Shown one piece after another: positions 37,303-54,077 of a stretch of 64,000 nucleotides of DNA (positions are counted from its first letter, which is position 1; each line of letters starts with the position of its first letter). Position numbers and translations under genes: made by a program. This DNA comes from Escherichia coli (GTDB lineage: Bacteria > Pseudomonadota > Gammaproteobacteria > Enterobacterales > Enterobacteriaceae): NCBI RefSeq assembly GCF_002854065.1, contig NZ_CP024152.1. One strand, given 5' to 3'. A model generated the notes under the pieces. That model saw only the letters and a list, made by a program, of their open reading frames with translations, ran no database searches and had not been told where the DNA came from.

Positions 37303-37420
37303 TTCAGGCTCCTTACGGGGTGTCGGGGCGAAGCCCTGACCAGATGGTAATTGTAATAGCGTCGCGTGTGACGGTATTACAATTACACATCCTGTCCCGT
37401 TTTTCAGGCCATTATAGCCT
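37303..37420. other. Origin of transfer (oriT) region with inverted repeats
   Basis: Inverted repeat GTCGGGGC...GCCCTGAC (37331-37349) and AATTGTAATA-N16-TATTACAATT (37358-37393), directly upstream of nikA; a nick site is expected at the 3-prime side of the right arm. Confidence 0.6.
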
Positions 37421-38853: not shown

Positions 38854-39180
38854 CCGGAGGAGCGAAGCTCCTTCTGCCGTCCGGGTCTTAGGGTATTTCC
38901 CCGCAGTGGACCTTTCCGACGGGGGACGCTCACCACGTCACGGGGCAGTTGTCCGGGGGCAGACGCAAAAGTTTTTGACGCCAGCGGCAAAAAGTTTTGT
39001 GGCTGGTACATCTCTCCCCTGGACGACTGAAACGGGATGTGGTCGTGTATGTACCCCCGGAAAGTCCGTCTGCGGAGAACAGGCCGCAGTGCGGCGGCAG
39101 ACAGGCAAGAGACAGCTGCGCCATCAGGCGCAGTGGCCTTACACACCGTAAGGTGTGCAGGGAGCGCCGCATCCGGCGCG
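38854..39180. promoter_or_regulatory. Structured repeat family 1, copy 1 (ssi/Frpo-like single-strand promoter candidate)
   Basis: About 330 bp, highly similar to 41711-42207 and 48054-48551; contains internal palindromes (GCGCCATCAGGCGC, ACACACCGT-AGGTGTG). Confidence 0.55.
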
Positions 39181-39281
39181 TCTGAAGAAAAACGACGGCA
39201 CAACAATGGCATGTGGTGGTCACTGGCACACCACTCCCGCACAGGTGAAAACAGAGAAAACCGCACGACATTTACAAACAA

Positions 39282-41660: not shown

Positions 41661-41710
41661 GAAAACGTCTCCTTCTGCTGAATCAGGTCGCCGGGCCGAC
41701 CGGTTGCTCC

Positions 41711-42207
41711 CCGGAGGGGCGAAAGCCCCTTCTGCCGTCCACTTCTTCGGGGTTTCTCCCCGCAGTGGACCTTTCCGATGGGGCGTCCGTCACCACGTCA
41801 CGGGGCAGCTGTCCGGGGGCGGACGCAAAATTTTTTGCCGGGTTTATGGCTAAAAATTTTGTGGACGGTATATCTTCCCCTGGACTGCTGAAACGGGATG
41901 TGGTTACTCCAGCCCCCGGAAAGTCCACAGCGGGAAACAGGCCGCAGGGGTGGCGGCGGAAGGGTTGACTGCGCCATCAGGCGCAGTGGCCTTACACACC
42001 GTCAGGTGTGCAGGGAGCGCCGTTTCCGGCGCGACAGGGGCGGCGCGACCGGAACGGTCGCTGCAAGCCTGGTTTTTCAGACATCGGACCGTAGCGGCAG
42101 CCCGAAACCGCGCCAGCGGGTTCGGCGGAGACTGGCGGGTGCGCCAGCAGCTGCCTGTCGGAGTCGGGCCTGACGACCGGATGCCGCCAGGCAGCCGGGA
42201 GCCGAAG
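41711..42207. promoter_or_regulatory. Structured repeat family 1, copy 2 (ssi/Frpo-like)
   Basis: About 500 bp, near-identical over most of its length to 48054-48551 and over about 330 bp to 38854-39180. Confidence 0.6.
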
Positions 42208-42388
42208 GTGTCCCCGCCTCCGGAAATCAGAACAACAGAAACGACATAACAGAAAAATGCCTCACACCATGACGGGCAGGAAGGGCAGCGCCGCAGGCGC
42301 GGCCCTCCTGCATTTCAGGCAGGCGTAAGCCTGCCAGGGTTTTCCGGCGGCCTGGCAGGCCATACCCCCGCCGGAGCGGGGGAGTAAA

Positions 42389-42889
42389 TCACCGACGGAA
42401 CACATGACCGTCAATAAAGGTGAAGGAGTCCAGGAATAAATCCCGCGCATACGCCTCATAGTCAAAATAGAGCGCCACCGTCTCCGGCACGTCAGCCAGC
42501 AGGCCGGTATCACTGGCGAACTCAACCGCAAAAGCCTCCTCACTGTCAGCCTCGCCCCACCAGGCATCGCGGAAGGTGTCAAAATCCGTCTCACCGGTAT
42601 CCTCCACCCAGAGACGATAAGCCTCTTCGCAGCCTTCATCCCGTGCCTGGCGGAAGCCTTCAACCCAGGCCCAGTTGATATGGCATTCAGAGGCCATATT
42701 CCCCGGGAATCCCTCATAATCCTGAAACATCAGTTCAGGATCGGCTTCATCCTGGTGAAGAGCACGGCAGGCGGCGAAAAAGTCGCGCTCATCATCAAAC
42801 GTGGTCAGGTCAAACCAGCGTCCGGCGATGCTTCCACAGTTGTATTTGTGCCAGGTTCCAACGTATACAGCAGGTGCAACAACAGACAT
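42389..42889 (-). CDS. ardA: Antirestriction protein ArdA (166 aa)
   Basis: Starts [27 protein letters not shown] and has the acidic DNA-mimic composition; GGAGGA RBS. The ORF-track 301-aa reading is an upstream extension through the repeat. Confidence 0.85.
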
Positions 42890-42921
42890 TCCCGAATCCT
42901 CCATAGTCACATGTTCTGCGG

Positions 42922-43248
42922 CACCGGGCGGTGCCGTGCCTCCATAAAAGCCGGGCGATAAGGCGGGGATGCATAGGGCGCAAGGGAAGCCGCAGCCTGA
43001 CGCACACGGCTGGCGGGAGTTGGAGGGTGAGACCGCGAAATCTGAGCGGGTGAACGACCGGAAAATCACGGCAGACGGGAAGGAGGGACCGGGTGACCGC
43101 AGCGGCGAAGCGTACCCTTGCATCCCTGCCAGCCCGGCTAAGATGGAGGCACGGCACAGCCCGCACACGACGCTGAGGCCACAGAGCTGAAAACCCACAA
43201 GGCCATGCCCCGCATGGCCGGGTAAAAGCGGAGCCGCCGGCGACTTCC
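42922..43248. promoter_or_regulatory. Structured repeat family 2, copy A (ssDNA promoter candidate upstream of ardA)
   Basis: Perfect 15-bp inverted repeat GTGCCGTGCCTCCAT (42931-42945) / ATGGAGGCACGGCAC (43143-43157) about 200 bp apart, plus further paired arms; second copy at 49870-50192. Confidence 0.55.
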
Positions 43249-43351
43249 TTATTCCGGCGAGTGCAGAGGACACGCCGCATGACCTCCAGACCACCCCTGA
43301 TATGAAACGATCATGATCGGCGTGTCCCTGCGTAAAATATACATGTCTGGT

Positions 43352-43948
43352 TCACCGGAGAATATCTGTGATATCCACAAGTTTTCTGTCGCACAGCCAG
43401 TCCTGCGCTTCACGCACCACGCTACTGTCGGGTTTCACCGCTTTCAGCGATGATGCCAGTCGCTTGATCAACATAACCAGTTCCCGTGTCTGTATGTCCG
43501 GCATTGTCTCCGGCGGAGCAGAGGGACTCTCATTTCCGACGCCCATCCCATGCGCTTCCAGTGTGGCACGGACAAACCAGGCGGCATCGACCAGTTGCTG
43601 GCGAATCCAGGTCAGATCGGCATTTCTGTCACGGGCTGCCATTCGCTCACCCGACAGCGCCTTGCTGATATGGCTGCGCACCAGATTATCCAGGAGTTCC
43701 TGCGCTTCTTCCGGTGAAAAGCCACCTGGTATCTCTGTGCGCAACAGTCCTTTCCTGTACAGTAGCTGCAGCAGATCAATCTGCGACCGCACTGCAACTA
43801 TCAGTACATAACGGACAATATTCGCACTGGCGGTGGTTTCTGTATCATTCAGCAGTTCCTCCGGATCATTACCACCGGTATTGCAGAGCAACGGCAACAG
43901 AGGTCGCATCCACACGGGAACCTGATATTGTTCGTCTGATTTCATCAT
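43352..43948 (-). CDS. Hypothetical protein (198 aa), coupled to psiA
   Basis: ATGA overlap with the psiA stop at 43945-43948. Confidence 0.45.
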   Translation of the reverse strand: MMKSDEQYQVPVWMRPLLPLLCNTGGNDPEELLNDTETTASANIVRYVLIVAVRSQIDLLQLLYRKGLLRTEIPGGFSPEEAQELLDNLVRSHISKALSGERMAARDRNADLTWIRQQLVDAAWFVRATLEAHGMGVGNESPSAPPETMPDIQTRELVMLIKRLASSLKAVKPDSSVVREAQDWLCDRKLVDITDILR

Positions 43949-47985: not shown

Positions 47986-48053
47986 AAGAACCTCCTGACT
48001 GAAAGATGTGAGATAAACCGGATACCGGCGACGGGACGTTCATGTGCCCCTTC

Positions 48054-48551
48054 AGAGGAGCGAAAGCTCCTCCTGCCGTCCACTTCACAGGGGTTTCTCC
48101 CCGCAGTGGACCTTTCCGATGGGGGCCCGTTTACCGCCTCACGGGACAGCTGTCCGGGGGCGGACGCAAAATTTTTAGCCGGGTTCATGGCTAAAAATTT
48201 TGTGGCCGGTGCATCTCACCCTGGACAGATGGAACGGGAGGGGGTTACGTCTGCCCCCCGGAAAGTCCACAGCGGGAAACAGGCCGCAGGGGTGGCGGCA
48301 GGAGGGAGGACTGCTGCGCCATCAGGCGCAGTTTCCTCACACACCGTCAGGTGTGCAGGGAGCGCAGGTCACGGCGCGACAGGGGCGGCGCGACCGGAAC
48401 GGTCGCTGCAAGCCGGGTTTTCACGCATCGGACCGTAGCGGCAGCCCGAAACCGCGCCAGCGGGTTCGGCGGAGACTGGCGGGTGCGCCAGCAGCTGCCT
48501 GTCGGAGTCGGGCCTGACGACCGGATGCCGCCAGGCAGCCGGGAGCCGAAG
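48054..48551. promoter_or_regulatory. Structured repeat family 1, copy 3 (ssi/Frpo-like), upstream of ssb
   Basis: About 500-bp near-duplicate of 41711-42207, positioned immediately upstream (minus sense) of ssb. Confidence 0.6.
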
Positions 48552-49410: not shown

Positions 49411-49836
49411 TCAGTCCAGAGCCGCGTAAATCGCGTTGCATTCGGGGTGAAATTCGATGTGACGCCACAACTGCGCATCGCGCATCCGGTAAAGCTGGGT
49501 CAGTCCTGCATCCCCGCTGTCGTGGTACAGCCACAACTGGCGGTTAATCACAAGGGAGGTCAGGATGATGCCTGCGGCATCAGCACTCACGGTACGGTCA
49601 AACCAGTTTGCACCGTTCACCATGTGGAAACGGTCGCCATCCGGCATCATGTAACCGCCACCGTCCGGCAGGCGGATGAAGTGCCAGAAGCCTCCCTGAT
49701 ATTCCGGCATCATTTTTTGCGCCAGCGCGTACACATACGCCTCGGCATACAGAAAATCGTTGCCAAACAGATACGGCAGAAAGGAGAGACGGTCGCACTC
49801 TTCAACATTCAGAGTGACAGGTTTCGCATATTGCAT
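49411..49836 (-). CDS. KlcA/ArdB-family antirestriction-like protein (141 aa)
   Basis: Family-typical motifs EYQGGFWHF and [10 protein letters not shown]; located directly downstream of a structured repeat, like ardA. Confidence 0.65.
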
Positions 49837-49869
49837 GATGTTTTCCTCCGTTGTTCACATATTCCGCGA

Positions 49870-50192
49870 CACCGGGCGGTGCCGTGCCTCCATAAAAGCC
49901 GGGCGAACAGGCGGGGATGCAGGGGCGCAAGGGAAGCCGCAGCCTGACGCACACGGCTGACGGGAGTTGCAGGGTGAGACCGCGAAATCTGAGCGGGTGA
50001 ACGACCGGAAAATCACGGCAGACGGGAAGGAGGGACCGGGTGACCGCCGCGTTCATTTTACCCTTGCATCCCCGCCAGCCCGGCTAAGATGGAGGCACGG
50101 CACAGCCCGCACACGACACGGCGGCCACATAACTGAAAACCCACAAGGCCATGCCCCGCATGGCCGGGTAAAGCGGAGCCGGCGGCGACTTC
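49870..50192. promoter_or_regulatory. Structured repeat family 2, copy B (ssDNA promoter candidate)
   Basis: Near-duplicate of 42922-43248 including the 15-bp inverted repeat arms. Confidence 0.55.
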
Positions 50193-50247
50193 CTTTGTGC
50201 TCTGTCCGGGACCGGCAGGAAAAAGGCGGGGATTTTCCCCGCCATCA

Positions 50248-51730: not shown

Positions 51731-52414
51731 TTACGCAGCCTCCGGCATAAACCAGTCATCATTCGCGGCCCCCTGCTGCATGGCCCGCTGTACGGCAGCC
51801 AGACGTTGCTGTCCGGCACGGTGATACTGCTCAAGCAGCTCGATACCGATATACCGGCGTCCGGACTGGAGGGCGGCGACGCAGGTTGAGCCGCTGCCTG
51901 CAAACGGGTCCAGCACAATCGCGTTCGGGTGTGTGAAGCTCTCAATCAGCGGTTGCAGGCTGGTAACGGGCTTTTCCGTCGGGTGATGACGGTTGCCCGA
52001 ATATTTCCAGCCCAGCACGTCCGGCAGCGGGTTTTGTGGCAGACGTGGACGGCCTTTTGCCAGGATGTAGGCGCATTCGTGGCGATAGCCCACATATGCG
52101 GCCTTCGATGTGTAGTTTTTGGTAAACACCAGGTGTCCGACCACGCTGAATCCCGCATTTTTCCAGGCGGCCATAAAGCGATCGACGCGGTTCCAGCCGT
52201 AGAAGCTCACCATCAGCGCGTCTTTTTTGAGTACGCGGTACATTTCATTACAGGCCGGTTGCAGCCATTCATCGGTTTTATCGCCGGCGATGGTGCGCCC
52301 GGAACGGTCACGAAAACCGACGAGATATGGCGGGTCAGTTAATATGAAATCAATGGCGTTATCAGGGATACGCGTCATAACATCGATGCAGTTACCAAGG
52401 ACAAAACGGGACAT
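51731..52414 (-). CDS. Orphan DNA methyltransferase, N6-adenine/N4-cytosine beta-class (227 aa)
   Basis: Motif IV DPPY precedes the AdoMet motif I FAGSGST; no adjacent restriction endonuclease. Confidence 0.75.
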   Translation of the reverse strand: MSRFVLGNCIDVMTRIPDNAIDFILTDPPYLVGFRDRSGRTIAGDKTDEWLQPACNEMYRVLKKDALMVSFYGWNRVDRFMAAWKNAGFSVVGHLVFTKNYTSKAAYVGYRHECAYILAKGRPRLPQNPLPDVLGWKYSGNRHHPTEKPVTSLQPLIESFTHPNAIVLDPFAGSGSTCVAALQSGRRYIGIELLEQYHRAGQQRLAAVQRAMQQGAANDDWFMPEAA

Positions 52415-52797
52415 ACGAAACTCCTTCTCTTACAGAGGGCACCGGGAGGGCACCCCTGTGGTGCCCGTTCCCCGCTGCCTGTGGGCTGTTCACCGCGTCC
52501 GGTAACGGGTCAGGCCGACCGTGGAATATCGCAGCCGTCGTCTTTTTGACGGCGAGAATATGCCGCGAAAGCGGCTTGAAGGGCGTTCATCAGAAAAGGG
52601 CGACAGGCTGGCGTACACTGTCATCGACGCCAGCCGGGAGCGGTAAAAGCGCCCGTCCCGTGCCCGCCGGACGCGGGACACTGACCACAGGCAGCGTTTA
52701 TGCCGCGCCGCGTCAGCCGGCGCAGTAAAAAGAGGAGCACGGCGACATCCTTTGTCGGAAAAGAAGCGGGCGGTTTCCCGCCCGTCTCCGTCATACT

Positions 52798-53553
52798 TCA
52801 TCCGCCATAATGCGCCACATTGTCGACTATCCACGCAGGTCCGGTGACTTCCGGCAGCTCATCGTCATCTGTCGGGGAAGACCATTCCAGTTCCCCCCAC
52901 AGCACATCAACAAGCTCTCCGCGCTCATACAACTGCCAGCCACAGAAATCACAGCCCTGTTCGGCGTACCAGTGCTCCAGCGTGCAGCCGAAAAGGCGGC
53001 TTAATTCTGCAACAACGTCGCTCTCCGGCTGACACCACGGCGTGTCGAAATCTACCTGAATGAAGTTTTCCCCCTGACTGCTGATATTCAGGTCATACCC
53101 ACAAGGCCACTTCACGCCATACCGTTCTGTATACCAGTGATATGCAGAAGGAACACCGTTCAGAACACCGCCGTTAAAGCCATTCACTTCAATATCCAGG
53201 CGGGTCGGCAAAACCGTCAGCAGGTCAAACGGCATGGTTTTTTCCGGCAGTACGTTGTCACACAGACGGTTCCACCACACCGATACATCCTCGTTACTCC
53301 AGAAGCCACACCAGTCACCTCTCTTTGCGGTGAAAAGTGCGGTGATGGTATCCCTGACATCGTCCGGTAATCCTTCCCAGCGACGCTGTTCAGTACCGCT
53401 CTGCAGCCAGAGTTCATGCAGCATCAGGCAGTTTTGTTCATCCAGTAGCACACCGTTCTGCAGGTGTGTCAGCCAGCGTGTGAACGCGATATTCTCCGGC
53501 GATACAACACCACGTCCGGCAGCCGTCAGTCCGGGGCACGGTTCAAACTGCAC
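52798..53553 (-). CDS. Hypothetical Trp-rich leading-region protein (251 aa)
   Basis: ORF with GTG start; no recognisable catalytic motif. Confidence 0.4.
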   Translation of the reverse strand: MQFEPCPGLTAAGRGVVSPENIAFTRWLTHLQNGVLLDEQNCLMLHELWLQSGTEQRRWEGLPDDVRDTITALFTAKRGDWCGFWSNEDVSVWWNRLCDNVLPEKTMPFDLLTVLPTRLDIEVNGFNGGVLNGVPSAYHWYTERYGVKWPCGYDLNISSQGENFIQVDFDTPWCQPESDVVAELSRLFGCTLEHWYAEQGCDFCGWQLYERGELVDVLWGELEWSSPTDDDELPEVTGPAWIVDNVAHYGG

Positions 53554-54077
53554 ATCTTCGTGGTCTGCAGAAGTCCGGCACTTCCGGCCAGAAACAGCTG
53601 AATACCTTCATTTGTGGCGCGGCGATAAAACGGTGTGACTGCGCCGCTGGCCAGTCGTTTAATCTCAGCGATCTGTGCCGGTTCACCAGAAAAATACATA
53701 CGATTCGAGCACCAGTTTGGCATGGGAATTCTCCTCTCACATGCGGCCTCCATCAGGCCGTGCCGCACCTGTAACCGGGCGACCGCATACGAATGCAGGT
53801 GCGGCCCCGAAGCCGCAGCGCGTGGAGGAGGAACGACGAAACGTGACCGGGTGAGGAGGCCGGCGACAGCGACACACTTGCATCGGATGCAGCCCGGTTA
53901 ACGTGCCGGCACGGCCTGGGTAACCAGGTATTTTATTCACAGAACCGTGCGCAAAATGCTGTGGATAAGCTGAACACAGCAGTCCACAGCAGGCATACAG
54001 CCACACTCTCAGAGAATTGAGCGCTTTTTAGTCACAATAATGACATTTGACTGTGTGTGGATTCAGTTATTAGAATA

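Follow-up and report, generated by a model that had tools for sequence, protein, structure and literature searches.

A 64,000-nucleotide stretch of Escherichia coli DNA (NCBI RefSeq GCF_002854065.1, contig NZ_CP024152.1; hereafter the window) carries two copies of a structured repeat, each placed upstream of an anti-restriction gene. Do these repeats control the genes behind them and, if so, in the single-stranded or the double-stranded state of the DNA? An earlier note, made from the sequence alone, read them as a dedicated class of single-strand promoters. The analysis presented here indicates that each copy is very probably a class-2 ssDNA promoter (ssp2/Frpo3) of a plasmid leading region. 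Our own evidence consists of homology, folding, covariation, strand-specific conservation of the -35 and -10 motifs and the association with particular genes; the zygotic induction, the 5'RACE starts and the roadblock activity discussed below are taken from the literature on orthologues. Class-2 ssDNA promoters have already been described and experimentally characterised in papers of 2024-2026, and the observation is therefore correct but not new. What is new is the family-wide comparative picture and a candidate third family member at 53752-53922.

Two repeat copies in a plasmid leading region

The window contains the leading region of an IncI (I-gamma/K1-like) conjugative plasmid. Its best relative in the database is NZ_CP039299.1, in which a 371-nt query was matched at 100% identity and the surrounding 15 kb at 96.5%. 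The oriT core lies on the + strand at 37347-37395 and consists of the inverted repeat GTAATTGTAATA...TATTACAATTAC followed by ACATCCTG|T. The motif CATCCTG|T at 37388-37395 (+), which the inverted repeat precedes, is presumably the nick site, judged by the MOBP nick consensus. The genes nikB and nikA (34.3-37.3 kb) are on the other side of the nick from the leading region. On this layout the + strand is the predicted transferred strand, entering the recipient 5' end first and running rightwards, with the leading region at 37.4-56 kb. The leading-region genes are all on the - strand, and the incoming + strand would therefore be their template. As a separate observation, the degenerate form YATCCTGY is in excess in the window, with 21 occurrences where 8.2 are expected, a count reached in 0 of 100 shuffles.

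Copy A of the repeat occupies 42897-43250 and copy B 49844-50195, both on the + (transferred) strand; copy A was matched by nhmmer with 188.5 bits. The copies, each of about 354 nt, are 92.1% identical across 355 alignment columns. The pair of about 320 bp that the earlier note had placed at 42922-43248 and 49870-50192 is thus real, with an extent slightly longer than was given. Both copies stop 8-12 nt short of the ribosome binding site and ATG of a minus-strand gene. Behind copy A this gene is ardA (42389-42889, -), identified by the Pfam ArdA domain (PF07275, E 2.7e-29) and by the annotation of the related plasmid. Behind copy B it is a klcA/ardB-type anti-restriction gene (49411-49836, -), which carries the Pfam Antirestrict domain (PF03230) and is annotated as 'antirestriction protein' in related plasmids. 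The two genes are 5.5 and 12.5 kb from the nick, and the position of the repeats just upstream of them is as the earlier note had described it. The location is also that of class-2 promoters: the leading region, the transferred strand and a site directly upstream of a co-oriented gene.

The exact inverted arms of 15 bp, claimed to lie about 200 bp apart, were found in both copies. The 15-mer GTGCCGTGCCTCCAT is on the + strand at 42931-42945 in copy A and at 49879-49893 in copy B, and its exact reverse complement is at 43143-43157 and 50089-50103, so that the arms are separated by 197 and 195 nt, respectively. Together the 15-mer and its reverse complement have 4 matches in the window against 0.16 expected, and 4 matches were reached in 0 of 100 shuffles. 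The arms form a perfect basal clamp. In copy A its 5' arm (42931-42945) would be part of the template strand of a promoter mimic, and its 3' arm (43143-43157) part of the non-template strand, with the discriminator and the predicted start region.

Hairpin structure and promoter motifs

Prediction of ssDNA secondary structure, proposed in the earlier note as a check, gave one long + strand hairpin for each copy, with -96.2 kcal/mol and a z score of -5.7 for copy A and -93.6 kcal/mol and -4.6 for copy B. Folding and covariation place the long stem-loop of copy A at 42925-43163 (+), and folding places the hairpin of copy B at 49873-50109 (+). Folded alone, the stems of the two copies reach -74 to -76 kcal/mol; for the stem-loop of copy A the values as ssDNA are -73.7 kcal/mol on the + strand and -62.0 on the - strand.

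When one genome per species was scanned with a sequence pattern, 57 distinct homologous hairpins were recovered, which span the Enterobacterales (Escherichia, Salmonella, Klebsiella, Enterobacter, Yersinia, Pantoea, Erwinia, Buttiauxella, Kosakonia, Rahnella and others). They comprise a long form of about 245-255 nt and a short form of about 193 nt, which is without part of the apical domain. When a structure of 49 pairs was laid over these homologues, 85.5% of the cells were paired, compared with 32-40% when the partner was slid. Changes on both sides were found in 25 pairs against 9-15 in the slid controls, and the covariation score was 0.228 against at most 0.057; the observed values were reached in 0 of 500 shuffles. 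Some invariant stem columns are fixed by the search pattern and filter, but the covarying columns are not. The covariation thus supports the maintenance of the class-2 stem across the Enterobacterales. The balance of G.T and A.C pairs (74 vs 48 cells overall, 27 vs 33 in well-paired columns) does not discriminate between the strands.

These results bear on whether the repeats have a function of their own at all. They could be a duplicated gene fragment, as the earlier note had allowed, a mobile repeat of the MITE type or a neutral palindrome; both the dispersal of the repeat and its inverted arms would fit, and a mechanical ORF (42389-43294) passes through copy A. This ORF is an upstream extension of ardA, in which the Pfam domain begins at residue 8 of the 166-aa protein. 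Compensatory changes maintain the stem across genera, and in about 80 loci its orientation and its spacing from the start codon that follows do not vary. The fragment reading is disfavoured by this covariation and start-codon geometry, and a repeat without function is extremely improbable.

The promoter motifs are located on the 3' arm of the stem. In copy A a -35-like hexamer, TTGCAT, is at 43118-43123 (+), and a -10-like hexamer, TAAGAT, follows after 15 nt at 43139-43144 (+); both hexamers recur in copy B, at 50064-50069 and 50085-50090 (+). In copy A a 3x3 internal loop is formed by nucleotides 43140-43142 (AAG) and 42946-42948 (AAA). Since the -11, -10 and -9 columns are paired in just 9-16% of the homologues, against 77-100% for the columns on either side, the -10 element is predicted to be held partly open in an internal loop. 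The 3' arm would be the non-template strand, because from loop to base it runs 5' to 3', as transcription into the gene does. The hexamer TTGCAT agrees with the -35 consensus at 3 of 6 positions only, the spacer is 15 nt long rather than the canonical 16-18, and the template arm has 4 extra nucleotides in the spacer. With so weak a -35 and so short a spacer, recognition would have to rest on the geometry of the hairpin.

The conservation of these motifs was compared between the arms in 22 homologues that were found by profile search and do not match the search pattern, as the search pattern itself had fixed TA...T in the 57 hairpins selected with it. TAnnnT was present on the 3' arm in 21 of the 22 and on the mirror, the complement of the 5' arm, in none (0/22). 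The TTG of the -35 was present in all 22 on the 3' arm and in 2 on the mirror. What the duplex presents toward the gene is only degenerate sequence of the type CTGCAT-N19-TTTTAT, and a consensus scan of 42300-43500 found no duplex promoter toward the gene and no convincing intrinsic terminator. Because the motifs are conserved on the 3' arm alone, the duplex is probably silent toward the gene. One-sided conservation of this kind is what a single-strand promoter predicts.

Anti-restriction genes are under the control of repressors on some other plasmid types, and the arms could accordingly be read as a duplex-DNA operator palindrome for a plasmid repressor of ardA and klcA. This is highly improbable. 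The arms are about 196 nt apart and their internal mismatches fall exactly at the -10; the consensus scan showed no duplex promoter that could be repressed; and induction of the orthologues is tied to the single-stranded state, lasts longer in uvrD mutants and is shut off after conversion to duplex.

The structure could also act at the level of the minus-strand RNA, for instance as a folded 5'UTR, as a site for RNase III or as a terminator or insulator between operons. Stable folding is predicted for the minus strand too (-85.4 kcal/mol, z -4.4), and each copy has, between its promoter stem and its 3' edge, a small hairpin that is conserved, GGCCATGC CCC GCATGGCC (43201-43219 and 50147-50165, +). 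This small hairpin shows compensatory changes in a homologue (GGCCCG...CGGGCC) and, when read on the - strand upstream of the gene, is followed by TTGTGGGTTTTC, a weak terminator-like run of T. A scan of 36-56 kb with the covariance models of Rfam 15 gave no match in either copy, and three chance-level matches elsewhere. The hexamers are conserved on one + strand arm only, which an RNA helix would not need. The starts published for the orthologues, which are said to fit the hairpin-promoter predictions, leave most of the hairpin untranscribed. A function of the repeats at the RNA level is thus very unlikely.

For the promoter reading, we predicted the transcription starts by counting 7 nt from the end of the -10 on the 3' arm (43151 in copy A) and mapping this nucleotide to its pairing partner on the template arm. 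The predicted start of ardA is 42937 (-), with a 5'UTR of about 48 nt, and that of klcA/ardB is template nucleotide 49885; the 5'UTRs of both genes would be about 48-49 nt. During conjugation the + strand would enter the recipient 5' end first from the nick at about 37395, and each element of about 240 nt, while single-stranded, would fold back on itself. Its 3' arm would then act as the non-template strand of a sigma-70-type promoter (TTGCAT, 15-nt spacer, TAAGAT, with -11 to -9 unpaired) and its 5' arm as the template strand, which runs straight into ardA or klcA. Host RNA polymerase would bind this duplex mimic, start near the base of the stem and transcribe the anti-restriction gene immediately. 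Once the complementary strand is made, the hairpin would be lost, only the degenerate duplex sequence would face the gene, and expression would stop. By analogy with the orthologue of plasmid F, the G+C-rich stem would probably also stall complementary-strand synthesis until it is unwound by UvrD, and thereby prolong expression from the single strand; for the two IncI copies this roadblock activity is extrapolated from the F element.

Downstream genes and neighbouring hairpins

Among 94 family matches, a ribosome binding site and ATG are nearly always found 21-35 nt past the base of the stem and on the expected strand. The downstream gene encodes an M.EcoGIX-like DNA methylase (NCBIfam PRK13699) in 28 cases, ArdB/KlcA in 22, ArdA in 21 and a DUF1281 protein in 7; another 11 are other or unclassified genes (singletons and two pairs). 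NCBIfam is without models of ArdA, KlcA and DUF1281, and Pfam was used for these. The census supports dedication of the family to anti-restriction genes, extended to methylases. A dedicated single-strand promoter class, as proposed in the earlier note, is thus supported by class 2 of plasmid pESBL and, independently, by the covariation, the asymmetry of the motifs and the census, but the class is not confined to ardA and klcA, since it also serves M.EcoGIX-like methylase and DUF1281 genes.

Other hairpins are present in the same region. The repeat family that the earlier note called family 1 has three + strand copies, at about 38860-39190, 41710-42040 and 48050-48385, which correspond to ssi1, ssi2 and ssi3 of ColIb-P9. 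Since ssi2 lies downstream of ardA, it does not serve this gene; the ssi3 copy is directly upstream of ssb, with psiB and psiA beyond, and not upstream of an anti-restriction gene. When the hairpin scan of Wen et al. was repeated on the window (300-nt windows, threshold -75 kcal/mol), it flagged ssi1-3, the two class-2 copies and a separate hairpin 5' of a methylase gene (windows starting at 52400-52490). This last hairpin, at 52420-52745 on the T-strand (+), is directly 5' of an M.EcoGIX-like methylase gene (51731-52414, -), and the segment 52405-52810 folds to -111.6 kcal/mol with a z score of -7.2. It is probably the published class 3 of Wen et al. It overlaps a mechanical ORF (52490-52834) that is annotated as 'hypothetical protein' in related plasmids; this ORF may be spurious.

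The candidate third member of the family is a short, diverged copy at 53752-53922 (+), located some 30 nt 5' of the ATG (53723) of a DUF1281 gene. The family profile matched it in nhmmer at 53757-53917 with an E value of 2.8e-14. Its clamp is GGCCGTGCCG/CGGCACGGCC, and it has a -35 TTGCAT (53878-53883, +), a 15-nt spacer and a -10 TAACGT (53899-53904, +) with looped-out AA, as well as the conserved motifs GAAGCCGCAGC and ACCGGGTGAG. It folds into a shorter hairpin of the same layout as the class-2 copies, and at -50.3 kcal/mol for its own fold it was left unflagged by the scan with the -75 kcal/mol threshold. We had considered that this short copy might be class 3, an assignment that was dropped, as the scan flags the methylase-proximal hairpin instead. 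The same short copy is present in pESBL, in F and in 4359 plasmid records. It is probably absent from the six published pESBL promoters and thus probably unreported. The DUF1281 gene behind it (52798-53723, -) begins with MPNWCSN... at 53723 and changes frame near 53540, while its orthologues are intact in pESBL and NZ_CP039299.1; the copy in the window is either a frameshifted pseudogene or the result of a sequencing error.

The 3' edge of the class-2 units is marked by a conserved tail motif, GGCGACTTCCTT, at 43239-43250 and 50184-50195 (+). In the form GGCGAC(A/T)TCCTT it has three exact + strand matches in the window, at these two sites and at 52741-52752, against 0.03 expected, and it thus closes both class-2 units and the class-3-like hairpin; a AAAGCGGAGC-like sequence precedes it. 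Many homologues, including ones in other genera, have the motif as well, 50-86 nt 3' of the stem. A wider reading would join these observations, and we would put its chances a little below even. On that reading, class 2 is one large Enterobacterales family of ssDNA promoters with long (~245-255 nt) and short (~193 nt) forms, dedicated to restriction evasion (ArdA, ArdB/KlcA and M.EcoGIX-type methylases); the element at 53752-53922 is a seventh functional promoter beyond the six of pESBL; and the GCGAC(A/T)TCCTT tail is a so far unrecognised module with a function in the class-2 units and in the class-3-like hairpin (52420-52745). If the element at 53752-53922 is indeed functional, DUF1281 proteins would be early-expressed candidate anti-defence factors.

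Comparison with known single-strand promoters

Class 1, which comprises Frpo1/2 of F and ssi1-3 of ColIb-P9, works by the same principle: a hairpin of the T-strand mimics a duplex sigma-70 promoter and works only as long as the second strand has not been made (Masai & Arai 1997; Bates et al. 1999; Nasim et al. 2004). Between class 1 and class 2, there is no detectable sequence similarity. The sequences of ColIb-P9 ssi1-3 are listed in Samuel et al. 2024, and family 2, the family of the repeats studied here, is absent from the five classical Frpo/ssi sequences of that paper. The family-2 nhmmer profile had no match to the ssi copies in the window at E<1e-5. The separateness of the two families that the earlier note had claimed is thus upheld. 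A comparison of the repeats with published ssi sequences, also suggested there, finds its correspondence in family 1, whereas family 2 is without similarity to them.

It might be asked whether the hairpins are mainly priming signals, at which an RNA or a primosome primes complementary-strand synthesis, with gene expression in second place. The original characterisation of Frpo was as an origin of primer RNA, transcripts of class 1 are reported to prime DNA synthesis, and early conversion events downstream of class-1 promoters are sensitive to rifampicin (Fraikin et al.). The class-2 element of F, in contrast, blocks DNA synthesis and delays conversion in a manner insensitive to rifampicin (Fraikin et al.). 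Because F ssp2 delays rather than initiates conversion, priming would be at most a side role, in which it is plausible. The tight spacing to the ribosome binding site and ATG and the restriction to anti-restriction genes also point to expression as the selected function. Priming as the main function of these hairpins is thus unlikely, and a promoter for anti-restriction genes is the reading that we retain.

Under the control of class-2 elements, anti-restriction proteins are produced in the first minutes after a resistance plasmid has entered a new cell, and in F the same element delays second-strand synthesis and extends the window of expression. By this timing and delay, class-2 elements would be central to the evasion of host restriction by IncI and IncF resistance plasmids. 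The value of the present analysis lies in confirmation, as a reading of the raw sequence recovered a real and recently validated regulatory class. It adds comparative support in the form of the covariation, the looped-out -10, the promoter motifs on one arm and the gene census.

Hairpins of single-stranded DNA that are recognised by an RNA polymerase also include the minus-strand origin of filamentous phages and the early promoters of phage N4. These phage hairpins differ in polymerase or role, since the former serves primer synthesis and the latter are used by the N4 virion RNA polymerase with SSB.

Closer relatives are found among the candidates of Samuel et al. (Nature 2024, Supplementary Table 2), where Frpo' 4 is a clear homologue of family 2 of the window and Frpo* 1 and Frpo* 3 are short-form relatives. 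These candidates were computational, came from an insect-gut metagenome and were not set apart from the Frpo family as a class; their loci were recovered again in contigs of Candidatus Erwinia dacicola. Enterobacterial leading regions with a class-2 element at 87-97% identity were also met at loci filed under other names, namely Streptomyces morookaense and Oscillibacter, Oscillospiraceae, Collinsella and Lachnospiraceae MAGs (loci L007, L008, L010, L012, L025, L053 and L057). Contamination or misbinning is most likely the origin of these records.

In F the class-2 element, named Frpo3 or ssp2, drives yfgB, which is an ArdB homologue (Fraikin et al., bioRxiv 10.64898/2026.01.09.698686; see also bioRxiv 10.1101/2025.04.03.647016). 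With the family profile we located it at NC_002483.1 56478-56720, upstream of this klcA/ardB homologue (nhmmer, 185 bits). F thus has one full-length copy, compared with two, at ardA and klcA, in the IncI window. The F element acts as a promoter and as a cis roadblock to complementary-strand synthesis; the stall is resolved by UvrD and prolongs zygotic expression (Fraikin et al.). Roadblock activity has been demonstrated for the F copy only, to which the window stems (-74 to -76 kcal/mol) are comparable in stability.

The closest counterpart is pESBL. In Wen et al. (NAR 2025, PMC12672017), transcription profiling of early pESBL transconjugants by RNA-seq revealed six induced leading-region operons, and the hairpins 5' of ardA and klcA were named class 2 ssDNA promoters. 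They are described there as being without homology to ssi1-3/Frpo (class 1) and distinct also from the M.EcoGIX promoter (class 3). Zygotic induction of the ardA and klcA operons is reported there as well, with 5'RACE starts that fit the predicted hairpin promoters. Nothing substantive differs between pESBL and the window, which represents another IncI (I-gamma/K1-like) plasmid. By homology as well as by their stem-loops and -35 and -10 elements (folds, covariation and looped-out -10), the two window copies belong to class 2: they are about 97% identical to both pESBL hairpins and share with them the strand, the hairpin and the positions 5' of ardA and klcA.
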